Below are positions 3,396 to 31,721 of a stretch of DNA of 32,000 nt, in pieces. The translations under genes and the position numbers were made by a program. Every line of letters begins with the position of its first letter. The stretch's first letter is position 1. The notes beneath the pieces were generated by a model. It did no database searches. It had not been told where the DNA came from and saw only the letters and a program-made list of their open reading frames with translations. This DNA comes from Candidatus Saccharimonadota bacterium (lineage in GTDB: Bacteria; Patescibacteriota; Saccharimonadia; Saccharimonadales; Saccharimonadaceae), in NCBI RefSeq assembly GCF_025273655.1, contig NZ_CP045921.1:390001-422000 (forward strand). Reading direction: 5' to 3'.

Positions 3396-3608
3396 TTATT
3401 CTGAGCGGGGTTGCGTGGTAACAGGTGCCGTTGGTACAACAATCCAAAGTATGATATACGGCAAAAATCCAGGTAGTCCGCCAGGAAGTAGCAAAAGCAC
3501 GGCTATGACGCGAATAATAGTCGGGTCAATATTGAAATATTCTGCGATGCCAGCGCAGACGCCAGCGATTTTGCGGTCCTGTGCGGAACGATAGAGTCGT
3601 TTAGTCAT
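3396..3608 (-). CDS. PspC domain-containing membrane protein
   Basis: 70 aa. RLYRSAQDRKIAGVCAGIAEYFNIDPTIIRVIAVLL is the PspC signature, followed by a TM segment. Leaderless-type promoter TGCTATACT-N6-ATG. Confidence 0.8.
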   Translation of the reverse strand: MTKRLYRSAQDRKIAGVCAGIAEYFNIDPTIIRVIAVLLLLPGGLPGFLPYIILWIVVPTAPVTTQPRSE

Positions 3609-3631: not shown

Positions 3632-4987
3632 TTACCCCTCCCGTGCTTCGTCGAACTTGGTTGCCATTGTAGGATTTCCACGCGTCAGGCGTTTGATCGT
3701 GAGATCTTGTGCTTTATTGTTGGCAAGACGCAGGTTGTTGCCTGATTTCATCAGGTTTTCTTTGACCTTATTCAGACGATCAATAGATTTGTCGATCTCA
3801 TCGATTGCACTTTCAAACTGCTTCAGCGTGAGATCTGTATTTCGCGAGAAACTTGACTTGAACTCATGCATACTCTGCTCAAAATTTGTCACATCAACAT
3901 GCTGGTTGTTGAGCGCGTGAATTTGCTTACGTAGCTCTTGTGATTTCAGACTACCGGCGCGGAGGAAACCGATGATAGTGATGAAGTGCTGTGGACGAAT
4001 TACGAACATATTTGGATATTCGTGCACGGTTACAATGTCATCGTAGTACTCATTGTCTTTCTCGAGTAGACTGACGAGTACAGCAAACTCACACTTCTTC
4101 TCGCGGCGATCTTTGTCTAGCTCTTTGAAGAAGTCTTTGTTTTTGTGTTTGGTTGCGGTTGTCTCATGCTCGTTTTTCATCTCAAACATGATGGAGAGCA
4201 TTTCGCTACCTTCGTCGTTTGTCTCGCGGTATATGTAGTCTCCTTTGCTACCGGTGCCAGATACAGTATTGTCTTTGCCGAACTCGGCGCCTGGAAATGC
4301 GATTGGGCGAATGCGGTTGAACTCGTTTTCGCAGTGGATTTCGAGCGACTCCCCTATCATCTTGGTGCTCATGCGCGTGCGCATCTCCTTCAGCGACACG
4401 AGTGCGGTTTCGCTGGCGCGGAGTTGCTCTTTATACTTCTCGGCGTCGAGTTCGCGCTGGTGCGAGAGCGCGCTGAGTTCTGCTTCTTTGCTAGATAGTT
4501 GTTGGCGGAACTTTTCTTCGAGCTGGCGCTGCGCTTCGAGTGCAGCGAGCTTGGTGTCGGACGCAGTTTGCTGCGAGACGGATTCTACCTGCGCACGGAG
4601 CGTGGTGATCTCGGCGTCTTTCTCGACCTTGATACGTGCTGCTTCGGCTTCTAGTTTCGCTAAGTCTGCCTGTAGCTCGCCCTTGGTGCGAGCAGTGGCA
4701 AGTTCTACGGCCGCATCCTTGTCGCGCTCCAGCTGGGTAACTTTTTCGAGTAACTTGCGCTCTTTCAGCTCGGCTTCGAGGGCTTTTTCGCGCTCGATCG
4801 CCTCGCGCACTTTGGCGACCTCAGCCTCGAAGGCGTCTTTTTTGATGCTATTGACCACGTTTTTCACGGTCGTAGTGTCGATATCGGTTTCGTGAATAGT
4901 ACGTAGGTCGACCGTATCGCCTTTATTTGCGGCTTCTTGGAGTACGAGTGTGTATTCGTCTTGGATGGCTACTTTGATTTTCTTCAT
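3632..4987 (-). CDS. DUF2130-like protein: long coiled coil plus C-terminal PD-(D/E)xK-like region
   Basis: 451 aa. E/K/A-rich coiled coil at about residues 50-210, then GSKGDYIYRE...SIMFEMKNE (D...E-x-K pattern). Overall architecture recalled as DUF2130 (RmuC-like organisation). Confidence 0.65.
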   Translation of the reverse strand: MKKIKVAIQDEYTLVLQEAANKGDTVDLRTIHETDIDTTTVKNVVNSIKKDAFEAEVAKVREAIEREKALEAELKERKLLEKVTQLERDKDAAVELATARTKGELQADLAKLEAEAARIKVEKDAEITTLRAQVESVSQQTASDTKLAALEAQRQLEEKFRQQLSSKEAELSALSHQRELDAEKYKEQLRASETALVSLKEMRTRMSTKMIGESLEIHCENEFNRIRPIAFPGAEFGKDNTVSGTGSKGDYIYRETNDEGSEMLSIMFEMKNEHETTATKHKNKDFFKELDKDRREKKCEFAVLVSLLEKDNEYYDDIVTVHEYPNMFVIRPQHFITIIGFLRAGSLKSQELRKQIHALNNQHVDVTNFEQSMHEFKSSFSRNTDLTLKQFESAIDEIDKSIDRLNKVKENLMKSGNNLRLANNKAQDLTIKRLTRGNPTMATKFDEAREG

Positions 4988-5101: not shown

Positions 5102-5749
5102 ATGAGTAGCGAAATGCACCAAGAGTTTAATGACGAGAACACACCAATCATAGAACCGGCCAAAAAAGGATTCGAATATGTCGCCGATCTAACAAACAGG
5201 CAGCTCGAACTGTTCAATGAAGCACTTGTAGAATATACGGATACTCCAAGCGTTAAAAATGACGAAGTACTTGTTAGTCTGGTTACGTCGCATGCAGACT
5301 CAGTCCAGCGTACGCTTGAAGCATACGGTGCTGAGTTTGGGGATGGAATTGCTGCGTTTCGAGCGATGACATATTACGTGGTGGGACTCGAGCAGCGTCG
5401 TGTAGAAATGATGAATAGCCTTGGATTAGAGGGTGCGGAGTTTAAAGTTATAAACAATGGAGATGTCGAAGGGGTTCTCTATGTGGCGCCAGAATATGAC
5501 GACACTGACACTACGGCGAGTGTCGAGCCTAGTGAAGTGGTCGAGACAGTGCACAGTTTTTATATGGGTAGATTTGGTGCAGACCTAAAGACTCTCCATG
5601 ATGCTGCACACGCCACGTATGATAACTCCCCTCGAGGTAGACGTAAAAAGTACATGCGGCATGTTGGTAGCTACGCGCTCGATGTCACGAAGGTAGCGGT
5701 TGGCGTGGTGGGCGCTATAGCTATAGCCAAAAAAACGAAATTATTGTGA
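5102..5749 (+). CDS. Hypothetical protein with C-terminal hydrophobic anchor
   Basis: ORF track starts at TTG 5072. ATG 5102 (MSSEMHQEF...) is preferred and is preceded by TATATT (5087-5092). C-terminal VAVGVVGAIAIA is TM-like. No family recognised. Confidence 0.5.
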   Translation: MSSEMHQEFNDENTPIIEPAKKGFEYVADLTNRQLELFNEALVEYTDTPSVKNDEVLVSLVTSHADSVQRTLEAYGAEFGDGIAAFRAMTYYVVGLEQRRVEMMNSLGLEGAEFKVINNGDVEGVLYVAPEYDDTDTTASVEPSEVVETVHSFYMGRFGADLKTLHDAAHATYDNSPRGRRKKYMRHVGSYALDVTKVAVGVVGAIAIAKKTKLL

Positions 5750-6538
5750 TGACTGCCGTTGGCGGAACTGCTCGTACAGACATACGGCCGTCGCTGCTGC
5801 GACGTTGAGTGATTCAACTGGCGTGGCGGCCTGGGGGATGTGGACGCGCTCTGTGGTGAGGGTCGCAAGCACGGTCGATACGCCTTGCCCTTCGTTGCCT
5901 ACAAGCCACGCGGTAGGTTGCCTTAAGTCTAGGTCGTATAAGTCGACACTATCGCCGGTGAGCATGGTGGCATATACGGGTGTTTGAGACGATTTGATGA
6001 GCTTCTGCAGGTTGCTTTGCTCGTAAATGCGTAGTGCAAATTGTGCACCCATGCCAGCGCGCAATGCTTTTGGCGACCATGCAGAGGCACAATCTGGCGA
6101 TAGGTAGACATCCGTGATTCCTGAAGCGGCTGCGGTGCGTAGCATGGTGCCGAGATTGCCCGGGTCTTGCACGTCTTCGACAAGCAACGCATCTCCTATG
6201 AGCGCCGTGTTCGAGGCTTCGGGTATGGAGAATACGATAGAAATACCGACCGCAGCGTGTACGTCGGCGACAGACTCATAGATATTGTCGGCAAACTCGA
6301 TGAGCGTTGTGCTGGTATGCTGAAGTTGCCGCACGAGTTCGATTACCTCTTCGTTTGCCTGCGCGGCTGTAGCGATGATACATATTTCTGGCGTGTCGCC
6401 AGTGTCGAGGAAGCTGTGCGCGAGGTGCGTGCCACTCGCGATCGTCCTGCCTTCTTCGCGTCGAGTTTTACCACTAGTGGCGAGCTTGCGAAGTCTGCGA
6501 ACGGTTGGGTTGTTATTGCTGGTGATAATATCGGACAT
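5741..6538 (-). CDS. TrmH/SpoU family RNA 2'-O-methyltransferase
   Basis: 265 aa. SpoU motifs DPGNLGTMLRTAAASG, WLVGNEGQGVS and IPQAATPVESLNVAAATAVCLYE. Confidence 0.85.
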   Translation of the reverse strand: MSDIITSNNNPTVRRLRKLATSGKTRREEGRTIASGTHLAHSFLDTGDTPEICIIATAAQANEEVIELVRQLQHTSTTLIEFADNIYESVADVHAAVGISIVFSIPEASNTALIGDALLVEDVQDPGNLGTMLRTAAASGITDVYLSPDCASAWSPKALRAGMGAQFALRIYEQSNLQKLIKSSQTPVYATMLTGDSVDLYDLDLRQPTAWLVGNEGQGVSTVLATLTTERVHIPQAATPVESLNVAAATAVCLYEQFRQRQSSQ

Positions 6539-21216: not shown

Positions 21217-21780
21217 GTGACCAACGCCGACCCAGCAGTGATTGCAAGTATCAACGGTCTCGTCGAAAGCCGGTTTCAGTTGGAAATCGAGCGAGAGGCC
21301 GAAAACCAGCGCTTTCAGACGGCAATAGCAGCTCTGACGCGCGAACACCAAGAGAAGCTCAACAGGTTTGCTGAGCGTGAGCGTGAGCTCGATCCTGATA
21401 TCTGGCGGTCTATTGATCACAACCGCTCTACACTGATCGTGCGAGGTAAGCGTTCTTTTGTCACTATTAGGGCAAAGTTCCAACTTCGCGAAGTGCCAGC
21501 CAAGCTTGAGGTGCTCGACAAAGTGAGTATCATGGAAGCTGCGCATCGCCTGGGTGTGGTGAAGCAAATCGCCAATCCACCAAAAGGTGGTTGGAGGTTC
21601 AACCAAAAGAAGTTCCTCGCCTGGTTGGCTAGTAGCGGCGATCTGTATCGACACTTCGAGCCATTCGTCGAACAGACAGACAAGACCGAGTCGCTGACCA
21701 TCCAGCCCAACACCAATTACACGGTGGAGCATGACAGTCAGCGCATCTCGCCGCCGTCTATCACTATCCAAAAGAGCTAG
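21217..21780 (+). CDS. Mu Gam-like (Ku-like) host-nuclease inhibitor family protein (tentative)
   Basis: GTG start with AGGAGG SD (21205-21210). The N-terminal coiled coil followed by HNRSTLIVRGKRSFVTIRAKFQLREVPAKLEVLDKVSIMEAAHRLGVVKQI...NQKKF aligns by eye with Mu Gam ANRDELTNGGKVKTANLVTGDVSWRVRPPSVSIRGMDAVMETLERLGLQRFI...INKEA. Confidence 0.5.
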   Translation: MTNADPAVIASINGLVESRFQLEIEREAENQRFQTAIAALTREHQEKLNRFAERERELDPDIWRSIDHNRSTLIVRGKRSFVTIRAKFQLREVPAKLEVLDKVSIMEAAHRLGVVKQIANPPKGGWRFNQKKFLAWLASSGDLYRHFEPFVEQTDKTESLTIQPNTNYTVEHDSQRISPPSITIQKS

Positions 21781-22408: not shown

Positions 22409-22443
22409 CCTGCGTGGTGGCTCACCTAGAGCCACCACGCAGG
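22409..22443 (+). terminator. 15-bp perfect hairpin after the 143-aa ORF
   Basis: CCTGCGTGGTGGCTC (22409-22423) pairs with GAGCCACCACGCAGG (22429-22443), with a 5-nt loop. Confidence 0.45.
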
Positions 22444-22468
22444 TGGAAGAACATTTGCTTCAAATCTT

Positions 22469-22495
22469 CCGTCGATTAGACGGCTTTTATTTTTG
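22469..22495 (+). terminator. Canonical intrinsic terminator
   Basis: CCGTC (22469-22473) pairs with GACGG (22479-22483), followed by CTTTTATTTTTG. Confidence 0.6.
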
Positions 22496-22606: not shown

Positions 22607-23101
22607 TCAGCTGCTATCTCTTTTCATTCTGTGCCACAGTCTCGGAATTACCTCGAAGCAAACCGTCACCAATATGATGAACAACACCATCCTCAGATCC
22701 CAATTATATTTATCTAGTACAAGGGCAACGATGATAAGCGACAAAAGTATTACGCCCATCGCCATATCCCAGCCTTCACGACTATACACCCAGCCAAATC
22801 GTACTATATAGTCTTCGGTGTTGGTCAAATCACCACCGCGTACGTTGTTGAGACCCTTTTCTTTCATGAGCTGGCGTGTGATTGTGTTCTCATACGTTTC
22901 CGCATGCTCTTTACTCACAATGCCTAGATCTTCAAACTTTTCAATTTCAATCGGCTTGTGCACCTTTGTCCAGTAGGCACCACGAATACCGAGTTGGTGC
23001 TCGCGAAAACGTGCCTCTGGCGTTTTCGATGTGATACCTACGTACCACTTTTCATTCTCAAGCTTGAGGATGTAAAGCCACCAACGTTTCTCAGACATCA
23101 T
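22607..23101 (-). CDS. GIY-YIG nuclease domain protein with two C-terminal TM helices
   Basis: WWLYILKLENEKWYVGITSKTPEARFREHQ...YENTITRQLM...NNVRGG fits the GIY...YIG...R...E...N pattern. C-terminal MAMGVILLSLIIVALVL and MVLFIILVTVCFEVI are hydrophobic helices. ATG-ATG at 23101/23098 overlaps the hsdR stop. The track's GTG 23113 is an alternative start. Confidence 0.7.
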   Translation of the reverse strand: MMSEKRWWLYILKLENEKWYVGITSKTPEARFREHQLGIRGAYWTKVHKPIEIEKFEDLGIVSKEHAETYENTITRQLMKEKGLNNVRGGDLTNTEDYIVRFGWVYSREGWDMAMGVILLSLIIVALVLDKYNWDLRMVLFIILVTVCFEVIPRLWHRMKRDSS

Positions 23102-25952
23102 CGACAAACACACGTATAAACTTGGTGAACTTGTCTGCTATGCGCTCGATCACACTGCTACGCTCCCGTATGCCAGGCGTTTGCGTTAGTGTGCGCACAT
23201 AGTCGTCTTGCCTAGGTTTGCGTCCACTATACGAATAGTCCGCGATGAGCTTTTCTAGTCGTTCGGTGTCTAGCCCTTCTTCACTGGCAAGTTGCTCGAT
23301 CGCCCTCTTCTCTTCGGCGCTCCAATACTTCTGAAACTCAACGTCTACTTGCTCGCTGTCGGTGATGTCGGGGAGCCAGCCGCTTATGAACTTCTCGATC
23401 AGTTCACGTTTGCTACGGAGTTTTTCGTCGCCGCTCATCAGGTCATCGATCTGTTTGTGCAGCTTGGCTTTTTCGGTGTCGTCGGCATCGACGTACCTTG
23501 CAAGCAGGCGTAGTATGTAGTCGACATTTATCTCGTCGCGACGCACGAGCTCTAGCTCGAAATCTACTTCGTTGAGTATCGAATCTTTCTCCGCGTTGTC
23601 ACCTTTGGTCTCAAAATATAGGTCGAGATATTTGCTTTTGTAATCCTCGAATTGCTGTGCAGTCATAGCCGTGTCGTCGTAGCCGAAATCGGCAAAGCTT
23701 AGCAGTACATTGCGCGTACGCATGACTTCGCGAAACAGCTCTACGAAATGTCGCTTGGCTTCCTCGCCTACAAGCATATCTACGTCACCTAGGCTCGGTG
23801 TATATGCTAGGAGTGCTGTCACTTGGGCGTCAAACTCGTCCACGTACGTTTCGTACGATTTGAGGAATATCGTTTCGCTGGCGTCTTTGTCGCTAAACAA
23901 GCGCACAGCTTCGTCTGTTCGCTTCTTGAGATTGCGAAACACAACGATATTACCCTGTGATTTGACTTCGTTCAGTATGCGATTGGTGCGGCTATAGGCT
24001 TGTAGTAGTCCGTGGTAGCGTAGGTTCTTGTCAACGTAGAGTGTGTTGAGTGTCTTGCTGTCGAAGCCTGTCAGGAACATATTAACCACCAGTAGGATAT
24101 CGATTTCGCGTGACTTCACACGTTTGGCGATGTCTTTGTAGTAGTTGTAAAAGCTTTTGCTATCACGTGTTGTGTAATTGGTGCCAAACATAGTGTTGTA
24201 GTCGCCCATGGCACGTTCGAGTACGTCGCGCGAGTGTTCGTTTATCTGGGCGCTGCCTGCCATGTCGATATCAACTTCGTCGATCATGCCGTCGGCATCT
24301 TTGTCTTCTTCGTTGGCTTGGTAGCTGAAGATCGTCGCGATTTTGAGATTGTGACTACGCGCAGCAAACGCATCGTAGTATTTGCGTAGTACATCCGTCG
24401 AACCTACGCACATCATGGCGGTGAAATCGCGGTTATGCGTCTTGTAGTCGTGATTCGTGATGATATAGTCAGTGATTTTATCTACCCGTGCGTCGCCTTC
24501 CATAGCTTCGCGCGTATCGATAGCTTCTACGTCTATGTCGATATTTGTCTTGCTATCTTCGCGTTGTTTGAACCGCCCTACGTATTCCACGCTAAACTTC
24601 AGTACATTGCCGTCGTTGATTGCATCGGTAATGACATATTCGTGCAGGCACGCGCCGAACAAATCCGCCGTAGTGCGTTTGCCGAAGCGTGAATTAAAAG
24701 TCGCGTTCTCTGCTTTAATTGGTGTACCGGTGAAGCCAAACATCTGGTAATTTGTGAAGTATTCGGTGATATTGCGATGTGTCTCGCCGAACTGAGAGCG
24801 GTGGCACTCGTCGAAGATGAAGACGATTTTGTTGTCACGTACGGATTCCATTGCGCTGGCATGGCGCTCCCGTTTGATGGCATTGTCGAGCTTCTGTATG
24901 GTCGTGACGATGAGCTTGGTGTCGGGGTCGCTGAGCTGCTTCACGAGTGCTTGCGTATTATCGGTGCCGTCGACACTCCCCTCTTTGAAACTGTTGAACT
25001 CTTTGATCGTCTGGTAATCGAGGTCGTTGCGGTCGACGACGAACAGCACTTTGTCTACCGCCGGGTTTTCTGTCATGATCTGCGCCGCCTTGAAGCTGGT
25101 GAGCGTCTTGCCGCTACCCGTAGTGTGCCATATATAGCCGCCAGTGTTTGATCCGCTGTCGACCTTTTCGATGATGCGCTCTACTGCGTAGTATTGATAT
25201 GGGCGCAACACCATCAATACTTTGTCGGTTTCGTTGAGTACGATGTATTTGGTAATCATGCGCGAGACGTGGCATTTCTCCAGGAAATCACGAGCGAATT
25301 CGTCGATCTGACTGATACGCTTGTTTGCTTTATCCGTCCAGTAAAACGTCTGTTTGAAACTCGCCTTTTTGGTGCCGCCGTAACTCACGCTATTGGCATA
25401 GTATTTTGTGTCGACGCCGTTGCTAATGACGAAAAGCTGTACGTATTGGAATAGGCCGTTTGCGCTGGCGTAACTGTGGCGGCGATAGCGATTTATCTGG
25501 TTGAACGCTTCTTTGAGCTCGATACCACGGCGTTTGAGCTCGATTTGCACCAGTGGTAAGCCGTTAATCAGTAGCGTCACATCGTAGCGAGTGCTATACT
25601 CGCCGTCATTTACAATCTGTTGCGCCACTTGGTACTCGTTGTGGCACCATTTGGCCATGTTAATGAATTCTATATAGGCGCTAGTGCCGTCATCGCGCAC
25701 GAGGTGCATTTTGTCGCGCAGTAGCTTGGCGCGGTCAAACACGTTGCCTTTGTCTAGGTGGTTTACGACGCGTTTAAACTCCGCGTCGCTCAGTGGTGTA
25801 TCACCAAGCTTCTCGGCGTTGTGCTTTTCTAACTGGCACTTGAGGTTCGCGAGCAACTCGTCGTTGTCTGCGATGATGACGCGCTCATACCCCTGCTCCA
25901 CGAGTTGGGCTACAAGGTTGTTCTCGAGGGTTTGTTCAGATTGGGTTGTCAT
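23091..25952 (-). CDS. hsdR: Type I restriction enzyme R subunit (HsdR)
   Basis: N-terminal SEQTLENNLVAQLVEQGYERV, Walker A HTTGSGKT, DEAH-box FIFDECHRSQ, and helicase motifs throughout. Start set at ATG 25952 (MTTQSEQ...); the track's 26033 adds 27 aa that overlap the upstream ORF. Confidence 0.95.
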   Translation of the reverse strand: MTTQSEQTLENNLVAQLVEQGYERVIIADNDELLANLKCQLEKHNAEKLGDTPLSDAEFKRVVNHLDKGNVFDRAKLLRDKMHLVRDDGTSAYIEFINMAKWCHNEYQVAQQIVNDGEYSTRYDVTLLINGLPLVQIELKRRGIELKEAFNQINRYRRHSYASANGLFQYVQLFVISNGVDTKYYANSVSYGGTKKASFKQTFYWTDKANKRISQIDEFARDFLEKCHVSRMITKYIVLNETDKVLMVLRPYQYYAVERIIEKVDSGSNTGGYIWHTTGSGKTLTSFKAAQIMTENPAVDKVLFVVDRNDLDYQTIKEFNSFKEGSVDGTDNTQALVKQLSDPDTKLIVTTIQKLDNAIKRERHASAMESVRDNKIVFIFDECHRSQFGETHRNITEYFTNYQMFGFTGTPIKAENATFNSRFGKRTTADLFGACLHEYVITDAINDGNVLKFSVEYVGRFKQREDSKTNIDIDVEAIDTREAMEGDARVDKITDYIITNHDYKTHNRDFTAMMCVGSTDVLRKYYDAFAARSHNLKIATIFSYQANEEDKDADGMIDEVDIDMAGSAQINEHSRDVLERAMGDYNTMFGTNYTTRDSKSFYNYYKDIAKRVKSREIDILLVVNMFLTGFDSKTLNTLYVDKNLRYHGLLQAYSRTNRILNEVKSQGNIVVFRNLKKRTDEAVRLFSDKDASETIFLKSYETYVDEFDAQVTALLAYTPSLGDVDMLVGEEAKRHFVELFREVMRTRNVLLSFADFGYDDTAMTAQQFEDYKSKYLDLYFETKGDNAEKDSILNEVDFELELVRRDEINVDYILRLLARYVDADDTEKAKLHKQIDDLMSGDEKLRSKRELIEKFISGWLPDITDSEQVDVEFQKYWSAEEKRAIEQLASEEGLDTERLEKLIADYSYSGRKPRQDDYVRTLTQTPGIRERSSVIERIADKFTKFIRVFVDDV

Positions 25953-25957
25953 TGTTT

Positions 25958-26599
25958 TTATTTTATTCCAATAATCTTCTTCAATTTTGATCCTATGCTT
26001 GTGATGCTTATTCTCTGAAGATCCTCGAGACATTTTTCAGCATCATTTTTGTGTTTCACTGGAGTATATCCAAAATCGCCTTGTCGACTCATATAAAGCT
26101 TATCGAATATATCTAGCTTCTGATTATAGTTTTCGAGAACAGCCTCGGCATTTTCGGAGCCCGATTCGTCAATAGTGTTTTTCGTTATATCTGCAATCGC
26201 ACGCTGTTTATTGATTCGTATTTGTGCAACATCCTCACCGAAAGACTTATTGTTTTCCGTAATAGCTTCATCAAGTAACCTAGCGGTCTGATAGAAGTCC
26301 GTAACCGTCTCCCATTCGTCTTTGTCGAAGTCTGCGGAAAACATATGACTATATTTCGACCATGCATCCTCGCGTAATATGTTAAAGTTTAGGTTACTGA
26401 GACCGCCTTGACGCACGGCATCTTTTACCTTAGGAATGCACCTTTCGATATGCTGTATCTCTAAATAAATAGAGTTTGCAGCCGCTCTTTTGCTGTCTTT
26501 CTTTTGACGCGTATAGATATAGAGAGCAACCAGGCCTGCTATAAGGGTAACGACCGTTTGCAGAAAATTTGAATTTAAGAGTTCCCAGGCAGCTTCCAT
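25958..26599 (-). CDS. Hypothetical protein with a single N-terminal TM helix (213 aa)
   Basis: TM helix FLQTVVTLIAGLVALYIYT followed by a charged helical domain. Its ATG 26599 directly abuts the upstream TAG (26602..26600). Its stop lies 5 nt before the hsdR ATG. AT-rich (22 G+C of 60 in 26041-26100). Confidence 0.6.
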   Translation of the reverse strand: MEAAWELLNSNFLQTVVTLIAGLVALYIYTRQKKDSKRAAANSIYLEIQHIERCIPKVKDAVRQGGLSNLNFNILREDAWSKYSHMFSADFDKDEWETVTDFYQTARLLDEAITENNKSFGEDVAQIRINKQRAIADITKNTIDESGSENAEAVLENYNQKLDIFDKLYMSRQGDFGYTPVKHKNDAEKCLEDLQRISITSIGSKLKKIIGIK

Positions 26600-26902
26600 C
26601 TACTTAGCCTCTTTACTTCCTAATTCCGACAGCTTGTCAATCGTTTTAATATCAAGCTTATTAAGTACGTCTAGCATTGCAGACATAGATTCCACTTCAT
26701 CCTTGCTTGGTATCTTGCTGCTCTCTAGTGACCGTATCTTTTCTTGTTGTGCCTCGATCGTTACATATGCACGTTCTAATAGATCGCGCATTTTTTGTAT
26801 CTTTTTATCGCTATCACCTTCGCTAAAATCGACAGTTGTCTTCAATGAGCCAAGTAGCTCACTGATATTACCCGCATTATTGAGATTGTCATAATCGCTC
26901 AT
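26600..26902 (-). CDS. Small coiled-coil hypothetical protein (100 aa)
   Basis: AAGGA SD upstream of ATG 26902. Heptad-like E/K/L-rich sequence. Starts 16 nt after the hsdS stop. Confidence 0.55.
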   Translation of the reverse strand: MSDYDNLNNAGNISELLGSLKTTVDFSEGDSDKKIQKMRDLLERAYVTIEAQQEKIRSLESSKIPSKDEVESMSAMLDVLNKLDIKTIDKLSELGSKEAK

Positions 26903-26918
26903 TTCTATATTTTTCCTT

Positions 26919-28127
26919 TCATATAAACATCCTCTGCAAAAGTCCCTTCTTCCACTGCTTGGCGGCGGTGAGGCGGGTTTGTTCTGCTGCTATTTTATCA
27001 TCGAGCGCGATGAGGAGGGCGGCGATTTTTTGTTGTTCCTCTTTTGATTTTGGCAAAGTAAGCTCAATATTGAAAAAATCTGAAACGCCGATATTTAGCA
27101 GACCGTGATTTCTTGCGCCCTCTTGGGCTACTTTTTCAATTTCAGAATCTTGAAGCCCATATACGAAAACTTGCTCGAAAAAGTCATTATCATTTGAATC
27201 TTTTGCTCTAAAACAGATATATAAGGTCGATACGATTCCCTTGGTGTACAGGTTTAATTTTTTGATTGCACCCATCGGATATCCGGCTGAATAGCTTTTG
27301 TTGTATGCAAAGTCTCCCATGGTAAGCATGAAATAGTTTGTTACATTCTTTGCGGCAACAATCTTACTAAAGAAATCGGTCTGACTTATAAGTCCCTGCT
27401 GTGCAGAAATGGTAAGTACATTTTGATTGTTTTCTTTATTTTTGTCTGTAACTCGATCAAATAGATCTCCGAGTCGCTTTTTCTCCCACTCAGGATATGG
27501 ATTTCCGTTTTCGTCCCTGAAGCGAATAGCCTGGGTGAAGATTTTTTGCATGACACCTTTTTTATACTTCTGTAGCAGCTCAAGCTTTTTCTCGCCCGCC
27601 GCAATCCGCTCATCGACGAGTGTCAAAAATTCGGCAATTTTTTCCTGCTCTGGTTTTGAAGGGACGCTAAGTTTGGTTTTTTGAAACTCACCCTTACTAA
27701 TAATTGGAACAGCTTGCTCTCCGGCAAGCAAAGATATTCTTCTAGATAAGCGGCTCAATGCCAAATAAACAAAGTCGTCGTCAACATTATTATCATCTCC
27801 AATCACGGAATTGATTTGCTGATTGGTTGTGCACTCTATCGTAGCCTGGGCTGTTTTCCCAATCGTTGATCCTATACATACAAACAAAGTGCTACCTACT
27901 GGTATAGGTCTAGATTTTTCAAAGCCTTTCTGCGATAATTTTGTTCTTGTATTTGTTACATATCGTCCACTATTCATGTCAGCGGGGCTAATAAATAAAA
28001 ATTCATCACCGTACAGGCTCATATCTGCGGTACTCGGAGTGCTACCGGTAACTACTCGAGCAATATCGCCAAGCTTCTTTAACTGCCATTTATCAGTAAA
28101 CGCTGGAAAACGAAGTTGAGGAGTCAC
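26919..28127 (-). CDS. hsdS: Type I restriction-modification S subunit (HsdS), two target recognition domains
   Basis: LRFPAFTDKWQLKKLGDIARVVTGSTPS at the N-terminus. Two conserved spacer repeats, EQEKIAEFLTLVDERIAAGEKKLELLQKYKKGVMQKIF and EEQQKIAALLIALDDKIAAEQTRLTAAKQWKKGLLQRMF. GTG start 28127. Confidence 0.9.
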   Translation of the reverse strand: MTPQLRFPAFTDKWQLKKLGDIARVVTGSTPSTADMSLYGDEFLFISPADMNSGRYVTNTRTKLSQKGFEKSRPIPVGSTLFVCIGSTIGKTAQATIECTTNQQINSVIGDDNNVDDDFVYLALSRLSRRISLLAGEQAVPIISKGEFQKTKLSVPSKPEQEKIAEFLTLVDERIAAGEKKLELLQKYKKGVMQKIFTQAIRFRDENGNPYPEWEKKRLGDLFDRVTDKNKENNQNVLTISAQQGLISQTDFFSKIVAAKNVTNYFMLTMGDFAYNKSYSAGYPMGAIKKLNLYTKGIVSTLYICFRAKDSNDNDFFEQVFVYGLQDSEIEKVAQEGARNHGLLNIGVSDFFNIELTLPKSKEEQQKIAALLIALDDKIAAEQTRLTAAKQWKKGLLQRMFI

Positions 28128-28939
28128 TTCTGCGCCTCTTGAGCGAGTTTACTGTACCTCTTCTCGTTCTTCATCCAATTACTTCGATGTTTAATAGACT
28201 GCTTCGACTGCGTTAGCCTCCAAGAATCTTTGACCGGCTCATAACCCAGCGCAGCTAACAACTTGACTGCGTACTCTTCGTTCAGCGCAAGGCGCTTTTT
28301 GACCTCCGAAAGTCTCCACTCGCCCTTCTCGTCTAAAAATTCTCTCAACTGATACGGATAGCGTACTCCATTTTTCTCCTTCCAATTATGAACCAATTTT
28401 CTGAGACCTCTATAACGCCTGAATTGCCACACTCTAATCATCCCCCGGTAGCCTAGCATTCCGAGAGAAAGGCTGCTGTCTAGGAAGCCAATCAAGTCAA
28501 ACGTATCGCCTCCAAGTGCACCAAGACCGTCGGGAACTCTTACATAGACGTGATATGCACTACCTTTTACATATCCATCTTCAACAAGTTCACTAACTTC
28601 ACGAAAAGTCCAATCATAAGATAGAGGCATGTAGCCATCGAGAATTTTAATGCCCCCATCTAAATTGAGTCCGTATTTTATTCCGAAAGTTGAATGCCCG
28701 TCACTACCATGTTTTGACTCGGAGCTAAAGGGTACAAGTGAGAGATGTAGAGGAGTTGCTTCATTAATACTTTCGTAGCCCATTTTTTTCTCAGCAACCT
28801 CTTTTGTGCTTTGAATCTTCCGAAGAGCAAGCACGCGTATCGAGTCGCTGTCTTTCACGCTTTCTTCGAAGTCATACTTAATGATACGCCCAAGATTGTC
28901 CGTATCAGTGAGTCTCAACGATATTATAGCTTTTGTCAT
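28124..28939 (-). CDS. Hypothetical protein (271 aa) inserted between hsdM and hsdS
   Basis: ATG 28939 lies 4 nt after the hsdM stop. Its TGA overlaps the hsdS GTG (GTGA). No family recognised. The basic C-terminal half may be helical or wHTH-like. Confidence 0.6.
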   Translation of the reverse strand: MTKAIISLRLTDTDNLGRIIKYDFEESVKDSDSIRVLALRKIQSTKEVAEKKMGYESINEATPLHLSLVPFSSESKHGSDGHSTFGIKYGLNLDGGIKILDGYMPLSYDWTFREVSELVEDGYVKGSAYHVYVRVPDGLGALGGDTFDLIGFLDSSLSLGMLGYRGMIRVWQFRRYRGLRKLVHNWKEKNGVRYPYQLREFLDEKGEWRLSEVKKRLALNEEYAVKLLAALGYEPVKDSWRLTQSKQSIKHRSNWMKNEKRYSKLAQEAQK

Positions 28940-28943
28940 AGCA

Positions 28944-30488
28944 CTAAAACGGCGATCTAACGCCGAGCTCCTTGGTGAATTTGGCTATCTGCGCGTCAAG
29001 GTCTGAGGTTTTGGCGTCGACGACTCGCAGCTCTGATACGACAGTATCGAGGTCAATCTCTGCTTCTTCCTCGAATGTATCGACGTAGCGTGGGATGTTG
29101 AGATTATAATCGTTTTCTTTGATTTCCTCTACCGTCGCGACATGGCTGTATTTGTCTTCGCTCTTTCGCGCGGCGTATGTCTCGATAATCTTGTCGATGT
29201 CGCTCGAGCGAAGGCGGTTTTGGTTTTTGCCTTTTTCGAAATGCTTACTGGCGTCGATGAATAGCACGTCGTCTGCTATCTTGCATTTGCGGAACACTAA
29301 TATGCATGCTGGGATGCTGGTGCCGTAGAACAGATTTGCCGGCAGGCCGATGACGGCATCGAGATAGTTGCGCTCTATAAGCGCTTGGCGAATCACACCT
29401 TCTGCCGCGCCGCGAAACAGCACACCGTGTGGCATCACCACTGCCATAGTACCGCTGTCGCTGAGCTGGTAGACCATGTGTGAGATGAACGCGTAGTCTG
29501 CCTTGCTGCTGGGCGCGACCTTGCCCCATGGACTGAAGCGTTCGTCTTGTGCGTTGAGAGGGTCGCTGTCGCCCGCCCATTTGGCGCTAAAGGGTGGATT
29601 GGCGATGACGGCCTCGAACCTGTATTCAGTATGTCGCGGATCTTTGAGCGTATCGTCTTGTTTGATATCGAACCTATCAAAATGCACATCGTGCAAAATC
29701 ATATTCATACGAGCAAGATTGTACGTGGTATTGTTCATCTCTTGACCGAAATATTCGTCCACCTCAGCGTAGCGGCCGATACGCAGTAGTAGCGAACCCG
29801 AGCCACAGGCTGGGTCGTACACGCTTTTGAGCCGCTTCTTGCCATTCGTGACGATACGTGCGAGTACTTGGCTGACTTCTTGCGGCGTGTAGAATTCTCC
29901 AGCCTTTTTGCCTGCGCCGCTAGCGAACTGGCCGATGAGGTATTCGTAGGCGTCGCCGAGGATATCGATCTGGCTGTTGCCGAGCTGGAAATCGATCTTG
30001 TCGAGGTGTTTGAGCACCCTGGCGATCAGTTCAGCACGAGCGTTGACTGTCTTGCCGAGTTTGGTTGCGTTGAGATCAAGTTCCGAGAACAGCTTATCGA
30101 AATCTTCCTCGCTGTCGGTACCCATGGTGCTGCTTTCGATATTGGCGAGGATACGCTGCAAGTCTTCTATGTAATCGTCGAGTTGAGTGCGCTCGGCCAT
30201 CTTGCTGAAAAGCTCGCTCGGAAGCAGAAAATAGCCGAGATGATCAAGCGCGGCTTTGCGCACTTCGTCGATAATCTCGAAATCGGTGTCTGGCACGTCT
30301 TTGTATACGATATCCTCACTTGCAAGCAAGTCGGTATCTGCGTAGAGCTCCAGCTTTTCGGAGAGGTATTTGTAAAAGATGAAACCAAGAATGTAGTCAC
30401 GAAACTCATCGGCGTCCATCTTACCGCGGAGCTCGTTGGCAATGTTCCAGAGTGATGTTTGGAGTTGTTTTTTCTGATCTTCGGACAC
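28944..30488 (-). CDS. hsdM: Type I restriction-modification M subunit (HsdM, N6-adenine DNA methyltransferase)
   Basis: HsdM N-terminal LWNIANELRGKMDADEFRDYILGFIFYKYLSE, SAM motif VYDPACGSGSLL, and catalytic IANPPFS. GTG start 30488 with GAGAGGGA SD. Confidence 0.95.
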   Translation of the reverse strand: MSEDQKKQLQTSLWNIANELRGKMDADEFRDYILGFIFYKYLSEKLELYADTDLLASEDIVYKDVPDTDFEIIDEVRKAALDHLGYFLLPSELFSKMAERTQLDDYIEDLQRILANIESSTMGTDSEEDFDKLFSELDLNATKLGKTVNARAELIARVLKHLDKIDFQLGNSQIDILGDAYEYLIGQFASGAGKKAGEFYTPQEVSQVLARIVTNGKKRLKSVYDPACGSGSLLLRIGRYAEVDEYFGQEMNNTTYNLARMNMILHDVHFDRFDIKQDDTLKDPRHTEYRFEAVIANPPFSAKWAGDSDPLNAQDERFSPWGKVAPSSKADYAFISHMVYQLSDSGTMAVVMPHGVLFRGAAEGVIRQALIERNYLDAVIGLPANLFYGTSIPACILVFRKCKIADDVLFIDASKHFEKGKNQNRLRSSDIDKIIETYAARKSEDKYSHVATVEEIKENDYNLNIPRYVDTFEEEAEIDLDTVVSELRVVDAKTSDLDAQIAKFTKELGVRSPF

Positions 30489-31648: not shown

Positions 31649-31721
31649 GTGACCTTACCGGGAATCGAACCCGGATTGCCAGGATGAGAACCTGATGTCC
31701 TAACCGTTAGACGATAAGGCC
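31647..31721 (-). tRNA. tRNA-Glu (anticodon CUC), CCA encoded
   Basis: Reverse complement GGCCTTATCGTCTAACGGTTAGGACATCAGGTTCTCATCCTGGCAATCCGGGTTCGATTCCCGGTAAGGTCACCA folds by hand into a cloverleaf. Acceptor GGCCTTA/TAAGGTC. 3-bp D stem GTC/GAC, typical of tRNA-Glu. Anticodon stem TCAGG/CCTGG with loop TTCTCAT. T arm CCGGG-TTCGATT-CCCGG. Confidence 0.9.

Follow-up and report, generated by a model that had tools for sequence, protein, structure and literature searches.

A tail-anchored GIY-YIG protein at the end of defence operons in Saccharibacteria: a candidate membrane-tethered nuclease

Introduction

Why should a Type I restriction-modification (R-M) operon of a Saccharibacterium end in a very small gene whose product joins a GIY-YIG domain to hydrophobic helices, and is that gene a part of the R-M system at all? 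The question arises from an open reading frame (ORF) at 22607..23101 in a 32,000-nucleotide stretch of contig NZ_CP045921.1 (assembly GCF_025273655.1, Candidatus Saccharimonadota bacterium, forward-strand positions 390,001 to 422,000), which we call the window and whose own numbering is used throughout. An earlier note on this DNA had described the product as a membrane-tethered nuclease coupled to hsdR, acting either as a spatially restricted effector at the site of DNA entry or as a nuclease-derived sensor. Bacteria of the Candidate Phyla Radiation (CPR) account for a large share of bacterial diversity, and their resistance to phages is poorly known. CRISPR systems are largely absent from them (PMC4742961).

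Judging from sequence searches, the window gene belongs to an apparently undescribed family of tail-anchored GIY-YIG proteins that seems to be restricted to Saccharibacteria and related CPR bacteria. Across this family the gene usually comes last, packed tightly behind unrelated defence clusters, and it is not specific to R-M systems. We favour, with slightly less than even confidence, a model in which the protein is an autonomous, cytoplasm-facing, membrane-tethered nuclease that would cut DNA on its entry into the cell, and in which it would act as an independent defence module and not as an R-M subunit.

Results

A GIY-YIG core with conserved catalytic residues

The gene and the parts of its product are listed below, with the basis of each assignment in brackets (TM, transmembrane; AF2, AlphaFold2; K/R, lysine or arginine).

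22607..23101, minus strand: ORF of the tail-anchored GIY-YIG protein, stop codon at 22607-22609 (sequence; 122 homologues)
23091..23101, minus strand: overlap of the hsdR stop and GIY start codons, ATGATGTCTGA (sequence)
22826..23089, minus strand: GIY-YIG catalytic core, residues 5-92 (Pfam, conserved residues, AF2, profile and Foldseek matches)
22781..22825, minus strand: beta-hairpin linker, residues 93-107, DYIVRFGWVY (AF2 strands 98-101 and 104-107)
22715..22765, minus strand: predicted TM helix 1, residues 113-129, MAMGVILLSLIIVALVL (Kyte-Doolittle 2.47, AF2 helix 108-131)
22646..22690, minus strand: predicted TM helix 2, residues 138-152, MVLFIILVTVCFEVI (Kyte-Doolittle 2.13, AF2 helix 136-163)
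22610..22645, minus strand: basic C-terminal tail, PRLWHRMKRDSS (K/R-rich tails in 7/7 members with two TM helices)

The ORF lies on the minus strand, a detail that the earlier note did not give, and closes a Type I R-M operon of seven genes on that strand. Its product, MMSEKRWWLYILKLENEKWYVGITS...NNVRGG...RFGWVYSREGWDMAMGVILLSLIIVALVLDKYNWDLRMVLFIILVTVCFEVIPRLWHRMKRDSS, has 164 residues when read from the first ATG (23101) and 163 when read from the second (23098), which is the start used in public gene calls; a GTG at 23113 is an alternative start.

The N-terminal GIY-YIG domain proposed in the earlier note was recovered by profile search, residue conservation and structure prediction alike. 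Pfam PF01541 matches residues 7-80 with E = 6.5e-7 and 30 bits, above its gathering score of 22.6. The catalytic set in the core, which is intact, consists of Y10, Y20, R31, H35, E71 and N85/N86, together with VRGG at 87-90; among 35 homologues no substitution occurs at Y10, H35 or E71, and Y20, R31, N85 and N86 are kept in at least 90%. A profile of these 35 homologues matches the solved UPF0213 proteins 1ywl (E = 1.4e-7) and 1zg2 (E = 9.6e-6). In the AF2 model (predicted local distance difference test score 94.7, predicted template modelling score 0.80), the GIY-YIG core spans residues 5-89, and beyond it lie a beta-hairpin (98-107) and then two long helices (108-131 and 136-163). When this model was compared with viral models (BFVD) in Foldseek, giant-virus GIY-YIG nucleases matched with E of about 1e-8 and a root-mean-square deviation of 1.5-2 A over about 91 residues. 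Against the PDB the E-values of the full-length model are weak (0.03-1), because the hydrophobic helices dilute the score, yet the top matches are all GIY-YIG proteins: UPF0213, UvrC, I-TevI and Slx1.

The catalytic domain is under strong purifying selection. Relative to the closest relative, the proportions of synonymous and nonsynonymous differences (pS and pN) are 0.31 and 0.02, giving a pN/pS of 0.08, much like the ratio of 0.06 for hsdR. This constraint and the 122 homologues argue that the ORF is not a chance one. From sequence and model together, the fold and the catalytic residues are intact, and the protein is predicted to be an active nuclease. The invariant catalytic residues and the low pN/pS speak against the degenerate, nuclease-derived sensor that the earlier note had offered as one of its two possibilities.

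Distribution of the family

A word-indexed search returned 122 homologues, of which 117 make up a clearly delimited family (40-78% identity), equivalent to at least 117 clusters at 90% identity. Members range from 131 to 164 aa, and most have 131-145 aa. An exhaustive hidden Markov model search showed that the subfamily defined by the catalytic domain is much larger, with 3,398 clusters at 50% identity (E <= 1e-10). Among the top 150 representatives of this subfamily, approximately 69-78 combine the catalytic domain with a C-terminal TM segment; the soluble forms comprise 31 tandem repeats and 41 single domains. Soluble relatives in the series P0141-P0261 (P-numbers denote homologous proteins and L-numbers the loci compared) form tandem arrays of 2-4 copies, some with CCHC zinc knuckles and others with long basic N-terminal tails (MPI(L/I)GVAG...). 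In Foldseek these soluble relatives match giant-virus GIY-YIG proteins.

Genomic loci were sought by exact peptide patterns in one-genome-per-species GTDB contigs (185,579 species genomes). All 33 genuine genome loci, a lower bound, lie in metagenome-assembled genomes (MAGs) of Saccharibacteria or other Patescibacteria. The IMG/VR viral contigs yielded only distant domains at 27-38% identity, without the C-terminal part, and no TM-bearing member. Other products of the window (HsdR, SpoU, DUF308 and that of a 187-aa ORF) also have relatives in Saccharibacteria or Patescibacteria MAGs. No second GIY copy was found within the window, and the family proved not to be described in the literature searched on GIY-YIG proteins with Saccharibacteria, UPF0213, Type I R-M and defence islands.

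Membrane anchor and predicted topology

The two hydrophobic helices that the earlier note placed after the nuclease domain are supported by Kyte-Doolittle peaks (19-residue window) of 2.47 at residues 111-129 and 2.13 at 138-156, and by the two AF2 helices. Upstream of them F102, G103 and W111 are nearly invariant among the 35 homologues, and the tether must be very short, since the conserved F102-G103 runs directly into the first membrane helix. A hydrophobic C-terminal segment at the position of TM helix 1 is present in 115 of the 117 family members, with one helix in 108 and two in 7. A median of 6 residues follows the anchor helix, and no family member has a signal peptide. TM helix 2 is confined to a 7-member subclade, so the two-helix form seen in the window protein is a minor one and a single helix is usual.

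In the window protein TM helix 1 is followed by a conserved DKY(N)WD loop that is predicted to be external. All seven two-helix members have an acidic loop (DKYxWD) and a K/R-rich C-terminal tail, and under the positive-inside rule this tail is predicted to be cytoplasmic, which would place the N-terminal nuclease domain in the cytoplasm as well. Two relatives (P0082 and P0090) have an extra N-terminal TM segment with a K/R cluster directly after it. Together, the tail-anchor geometry, the loop and tail charges of the two-helix members and this K/R cluster suggest that the nuclease domain is cytoplasmic and that a short, structured linker keeps it near the membrane. A match of the protein to the baculovirus Ac76 family in Pfam (E = 0.0023, below threshold) covers the hydrophobic helices only and was judged to be compositional.

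Genomic context

The immediate upstream neighbours of the gene were scanned with Pfam, and 20 of 30 are of defence type. R-M proteins among them comprise HsdR of the EcoEI, HindI and EcoR124 types, Type ISP, MmeI/Eco57I-like, Type III Res and AlwI. Further defence-type neighbours are PLD-SNF2, GmrSD, a LexA-fused C5 methyltransferase, OLD, AAA_13 and an SMC-like ATPase, and the defence-type set is completed by PIF1, a Schlafen-group-3 helicase, DUF2130, which belongs to the PD-(D/E)XK family (PMC3424549), and a Panacea toxin-antitoxin pair. On metagenome contigs, a Type III Mod-ATPase-Res operon lies upstream on more than 24 contigs, and other contexts there include a DUF4357-containing Type I operon, an MmeI-like locus and a neighbouring Mrr gene. 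On the downstream side only 1 of 10 neighbours is of nuclease type (HNH_5), the other family matches being VTC, DinB, MetK, MFS and HSP20. A co-directional upstream gene overlaps the GIY gene or ends within 30 nt of it in approximately 20 of approximately 36 loci.

The earlier note had suggested a survey for such genes beside hsdR, and had allowed that this might be a common stand-alone gene unrelated to R-M. The hsdR pairing does recur, at approximately seven Type I loci, but most family members follow other genes. The stand-alone alternative thus holds in part: the gene is an independent module with many different contexts, but roughly two-thirds of these are defence clusters.

Clustering of the neighbouring ORFs revealed no conserved small partner ORF of the immunity or antitoxin kind. 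A fixed pairing with DUF2130 was also considered. DUF2130 is the commonest direct neighbour (5 loci), but the GIY proteins concerned are scattered over the family tree, and an obligate pair is further ruled out by the placement of DUF2130 downstream of the gene in L047 and 18 kb away from it in the window.

Several individual loci deserve mention. The gene adjoins metK in L007, L009 and L011 (positions -1, +2 and +1), which may mark a shared chromosomal hot spot. In L047, where a Type I-like operon ends in a GIY-TM gene, the coding region of a 276-aa DUF4357 protein (5184-6014) shares 14 nt with the start of that gene; fusions of DUF4357 to soluble GIY-YIG domains are common in R-M loci. At L039 (2869-6826), a two-helix member (P0003) is followed on the opposite strand by an inovirus-like block with a REP_ORF2-G2P initiator and a faint match to a Zot-like ATPase; the block possibly represents a filamentous prophage of a Saccharibacterium.

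Independence from hsdR

The gene immediately upstream in the window is the following.

23091-25952, minus strand (longest ORF to 26033): hsdR, EcoR124-type, 953 aa from the public-call start (Pfam)

The encoded HsdR is complete, with HSDR_N, SWI2_SNF2, T1R_D3-like and EcoR124_C domains in Pfam. At the junction, which reads GTCGATGATGTCTGAG, the ATG-ATG of the GIY gene overlaps the end of hsdR as the earlier note had seen: the hsdR stop TGA (23093-23091) falls within GIY codons 3-4, and the overlap is 11 nt counted from the first ATG and 8 nt from the second. The junction sequence contains no Shine-Dalgarno-like motif 5' of the GIY start. All seven genes of the operon have tight or overlapping junctions, between -8 and +16 nt, and the hsdR/GIY junction is therefore not special.

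The hsdR-GIY junction is kept in three lineages, namely the window, L063, in which the HsdR C-terminus is 95% identical and the overlap is identical, and L022, in which HsdR is 79% identical and the junction is TAATG. A metagenome scan with the HsdR C-terminus identified 35 relatives (29-81% identity over those 200 residues), and none of the 35 has a family member downstream. The HsdR proteins of L066 and L067 are 88% identical over more than 840 residues, and the GIY gene does not lie downstream of either; in L066 the next genes after hsdR are an FtsQ-like gene and murG. When the GIY proteins were placed in a neighbour-joining tree, their grouping did not follow genomic context. Given this tree and the absence of the gene from all 35 HsdR relatives, the linkage to hsdR is facultative. 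The overlap with hsdR reflects operon packing and co-expression and not a dedicated partnership. The earlier view of the gene as a specific part of an R-M operon is thus not sustained, the more so as most members follow other defence genes. As a separate observation, the R-M relative in L066 (498-3603, on a 945-kb contig) looks decayed, with an hsdM fragment (residues 1-195) abutting an N-terminally truncated hsdR.

Recombination at and within the gene

The similarity between loci L003 and L005 is limited to 579 nt (92% identity), corresponding to the gene and 190 nt of 3' flank. Their surroundings are unrelated, consisting of a GmrSD operon in one case and an SMC-like ATPase operon in the other. 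In two further pairs, L013/L016 and L008/L032, the gene and its downstream flank are common while the upstream genes differ. Within the gene itself, the window and L063 are approximately 91% identical at the DNA level through the 3' end of hsdR and GIY codons 1-105, after which identity collapses and both proportions jump, pS to 0.70 (from 0.31) and pN to 0.41 (from 0.02; window 22610-22786, L063 750-914). This collapse and the jump in pS and pN indicate a recombination breakpoint exactly at the boundary between catalytic domain and anchor. The anchor half differs in its history from the catalytic half, and the gene as a whole behaves as a conserved boundary of variable defence islands that sometimes moves as a cassette.

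The non-coding stretch of about 190 nt 3' of the gene (L003 4850-5037; L005, L006 8404-8597) is approximately 92% conserved between L003 and L005. It was searched for a structured RNA or attC-like site; no Rfam family matched at the gathering score, covariation in RNAalifold was negligible, and the only match was a sub-threshold one to a Thr-leader-like terminator.

Discussion

Comparison with known systems

The closest conceptual parallel is SNIPE (PD-lambda-1; Vassallo et al. 2022). This GIY-YIG nuclease is bound to the membrane and cleaves lambda DNA as it is injected; deletion of its TM segment makes it toxic through chromosome cutting, and it depends on its DUF4041 domain both to bind DNA and to recognise the tape measure (Saxton et al. 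2025; bioRxiv 10.1101/2025.11.03.685801). The earlier note had regarded the window protein as unusual on the grounds that GIY-YIG nucleases are normally soluble. That premise does not hold, because SNIPE homologues are membrane-bound across many phyla and the tail-anchored family alone comprises at least 117 clusters. A membrane-anchored GIY-YIG nuclease is already precedented in concept, then, and it is the family itself that is undescribed.

Both SNIPE and the present family are single-gene modules in defence regions, with a GIY-YIG-superfamily nuclease on the cytoplasmic side of a membrane anchor (shown for SNIPE, predicted here) and a catalytic Glu that is essential in SNIPE and invariant here. 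In both, the membrane-proximal part is the most variable, being the N-terminal region in SNIPE and the TM module in the present family. The differences are nonetheless considerable. Domain order is reversed, with the nuclease N-terminal and the anchor C-terminal (residues 113-129 and 138-152) in the window protein, which has no DUF4041 match in Pfam and only about 20 residues between core and first TM helix. Members of the present family have 131-164 aa as against more than 414 aa, and appear CPR-restricted, whereas SNIPE occurs in many phyla. Since there is no PADLOC model match, the similarity stops at the GIY-YIG superfamily, and the family members are not SNIPE homologues.

UPF0213 proteins (EF2693, 1ywl; BH0048, 1zg2; Slx1-like URI domain) are the closest solved structures by profile and are among the top Foldseek matches in the PDB. 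They share with the present family a minimal single-domain catalytic unit and a G-x-(A/G)-x-(Y/W)-T motif that follows helix 1, but they are soluble proteins of approximately 95-107 aa that lack an anchor, the extra beta-hairpin and the NNVRGG signature. In the present family, hairpin and anchor both occur in 115 of the 117 members. We know of no association of UPF0213 proteins with defence islands. The GIY-YIG proteins of giant viruses (nucleocytoplasmic large DNA viruses) fall in the same catalytic subfamily (Foldseek E of about 1e-8, 32-37% identity) and were also found directly by HMMER (P0118-P0120), along with tandem forms. In contrast to the present family, they are soluble, carry C-terminal zinc knuckles (CCHC), lectin domains or further GIY copies, and are viral or eukaryote-associated and not genes of bacterial defence islands.

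Homing endonucleases (I-TevI, SegA-G) likewise have an N-terminal GIY-YIG domain of about 100 aa encoded by a small gene between or after others, and the signs of cassette-like horizontal movement in the present family resemble theirs. They differ in being phage- or intron-borne and in having a C-terminal sequence-specific DNA-binding module; the window protein has no NUMOD, IENR or helix-turn-helix match in Pfam, and its C-terminus consists of hydrophobic helices only. Zorya and Kiwa also use a membrane location against incoming phage DNA (bioRxiv 10.1101/2025.11.03.685801), but these are multi-gene systems with dedicated membrane sensors and no homology to the present family, whose members are single proteins of about 140 aa.

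Proposed function

In the model that we favour, a catalytic domain of about 105 aa would sit in the cytoplasm, with a very short beta-hairpin connecting it to the C-terminal membrane anchor, which would be one helix in most members and, in the window protein, a helical hairpin with a basic cytoplasmic tail. The active site would thereby be kept no more than a few nanometres from the membrane's inner face and could cut DNA while it is being threaded into the cell, during phage injection and possibly during transformation. The chromosome would be spared through confinement of the nuclease, through autoinhibition, or through both, following the same spatial self/non-self logic as SNIPE, and the gene would be co-transcribed as the last gene of whichever defence operon lies upstream. 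The topology, the nuclease activity, the defence role and the choice of incoming DNA as target are all elements that we infer. The spatially restricted effector suggested in the earlier note is thus plausible, with SNIPE as its experimental precedent (bioRxiv 10.1101/2025.11.03.685801).

Several considerations weigh against this model. The proposed defence role derives entirely from genomic association, and approximately one-third of the loci have no recognisable defence gene nearby. These include L050 (rpsP, trmD, PspC, LiaF), L007 (metK), L010 (TPR), L017 (GNAT) and L039 (SpoU, an ion channel and the inovirus-like element). The protein has no match in NCBIfam, PADLOC (PADLOC-DB v2, E <= 0.01) or PHROGs, and contains no DNA-binding or phage-sensing domain, whereas SNIPE needs DUF4041 for both functions. 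Its predicted topology is drawn from charge distribution and tail-anchor logic, and in the one-helix members the flanking charge bias is weak, with 2.1 K/R before the helix and 1.2 after it. Finally, Saccharibacteria have extremely small cells in which the nucleoid always lies near the membrane, and confinement to the membrane alone may therefore not protect the chromosome.

A more ambitious version joins the proposed function to the evolutionary observations, and we offer it tentatively, expecting that it will probably not hold in full. The protein might be a defence module of CPR bacteria and the smallest known spatial-immunity nuclease (approximately 131-164 aa), a bare tail-anchored GIY-YIG domain that destroys DNA at entry without a recognition domain. 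Its gene might double as a 3' boundary, and as a homologous-recombination arm, for swaps of whole defence operons in naturally competent Saccharibacteria, with the anchor module exchanged separately and perhaps tracking the entry machinery of phages.

The distribution of the gene bears on two other explanations. It might be a dedicated accessory subunit of this Type I R-M system that works in physical cooperation with HsdR, for example by cutting DNA reeled in by HsdR at the membrane; the overlap of its start with the hsdR stop, the retention of that junction in L063 and L022, and the status of Type I R-M as the commonest single context (approximately seven loci, with three or four HsdR families) would all agree with such a role. 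However, not one of the 35 HsdR relatives, 88%-identical orthologues included, has the gene downstream, genes other than Type I ones precede most family members, the GIY phylogeny is independent of context, and every junction in the window operon is equally tight. The distribution largely refutes a subunit role, which we consider very improbable. Alternatively, the gene could be a selfish, mobile nuclease cassette, comparable to a free-standing homing endonuclease gene, that lands at operon 3' ends or hot spots and for which defence neighbours are incidental. Such a cassette would fit the unrelated flanks of the segment shared by L003 and L005, a GIY phylogeny out of step with context and the breakpoint within the gene between the window and L063, and an N-terminal catalytic domain is likewise found in free-standing homing endonucleases such as I-TevI and the Seg proteins. 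Homing nevertheless needs a sequence-specific DNA-binding domain, and the family has instead a conserved membrane anchor (115/117). TM-bearing members are absent from the IMG/VR viral contigs, the insertion contexts are variable accessory genes with no single conserved target, and the synteny seen in L013/L016, in L008/L032 and around the 187-aa ORF described below fits a resident boundary gene or recombination arm equally well. We regard a selfish origin as unlikely.

Two further explanations keep a nuclease at the membrane and assign it another task. As an abortive-infection effector or toxin, it would be stored inactive at the membrane and, once released or activated upon infection, for instance by membrane perturbation or proteolysis, would degrade host and phage DNA together. 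Location in defence clusters is compatible with this, R-M systems are often linked to accessory genes for which a toxin role has been proposed (reviewed in PMC12707154), and the high toxicity of SNIPE lacking its TM segment, which arises through chromosome cleavage, implies that release from the membrane would kill the cell. The family shows no sensor domain, conserved partner, antitoxin or conserved small neighbouring ORF, though, and no protease site is evident; the linker is very short and structured in the AF2 model. We give this explanation little weight. A housekeeping function is the other candidate, in which an inner-face nuclease would turn imported DNA into nucleotides for salvage or limit its integration. 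CPR bacteria are naturally competent, the family is confined to Saccharibacteria and other Patescibacteria, and the neighbourhoods of L050, L007 and L039 are of housekeeping type. CPR bacteria also lack nucleotide synthesis (bioRxiv 10.64898/2026.07.13.738296). Such a function is difficult to reconcile with a sporadic distribution (at least 33 loci in the 185,579 species genomes, by exact-peptide-pattern search), with close HsdR-bearing relatives that lack the gene, or with the signs of horizontal exchange. Com/pil linkage was seen in none of the examined loci, and defence clusters make up most contexts, so we hold a housekeeping role to be similarly improbable.

If the favoured model is correct, a tiny, widespread membrane-tethered nuclease that ends defence operons would represent a lineage-specific layer of immunity in CPR bacteria, and the spatial self/non-self principle of SNIPE would have arisen independently in a minimal, reversed architecture. 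The gene also marks the borders of variable defence islands while itself containing a breakpoint at the junction of its catalytic and anchor parts. A 105-aa nuclease domain with location-controlled activity could, in addition, serve as a tool.

The operon and its surroundings

The remaining genes of the window operon, from its upstream end, and the region that closes it are as follows; junctions in this part of the operon are -4 to +16 nt.

28944-30488, minus strand: hsdM
28124-28939, minus strand: 271-aa ORF between hsdM and hsdS, function unassigned
26919-28127, minus strand: hsdS
26600-26902, minus strand: 100-aa ORF, function unassigned
25958-26599, minus strand: 213-aa ORF between hsdS and hsdR with an N-terminal TM segment, function unassigned
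22410..22483: convergent intergenic region ending the operon, with a perfect hairpin of 14-bp stem (22410-22442) and a terminator-like hairpin with T-run (22469-22483)

Searches of Pfam, NCBIfam and PADLOC gave no match at curated threshold for the 271-, 100- and 213-aa ORFs. In PHROGs the product of the 213-aa ORF matches tape-measure proteins (E = 3.9e-5), a match that may be compositional. A tRNA gene (31650-31721, minus strand) lies just past the upstream end of the operon, and the G+C content around hsdS (26000-28500) is approximately 40% compared with a window average of approximately 50%. Lying between the tRNA gene and the GIY-TM gene, the R-M operon looks like a horizontally acquired island. 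The distant DUF2130 gene of the window occupies 3632-4987 on the minus strand and is followed by a PspC-like 70-aa ORF at 3396-3608.

In PHROGs, the 187-aa ORF (21217-21780, plus strand) weakly matches Mu Gam-like end protection (E = 2.7e-6). A Mu-Gam-like ORF of this kind lies convergently downstream of the GIY-TM gene in five loci: the window and the four listed here.

L063, 4145-4717: Mu-Gam-like ORF
L008, 10493-11119: Mu-Gam-like ORF
L032, 10900-11505: Mu-Gam-like ORF
L050, 6519-7103: Mu-Gam-like ORF

The upstream side of these loci varies, with Type I R-M, MmeI or housekeeping genes, and their GIY proteins come from different subclades. The recurrence of the Mu-Gam-like ORF next to the GIY-TM gene could reflect synteny, or a nuclease and a DNA-end-binding protein could be functionally paired here.

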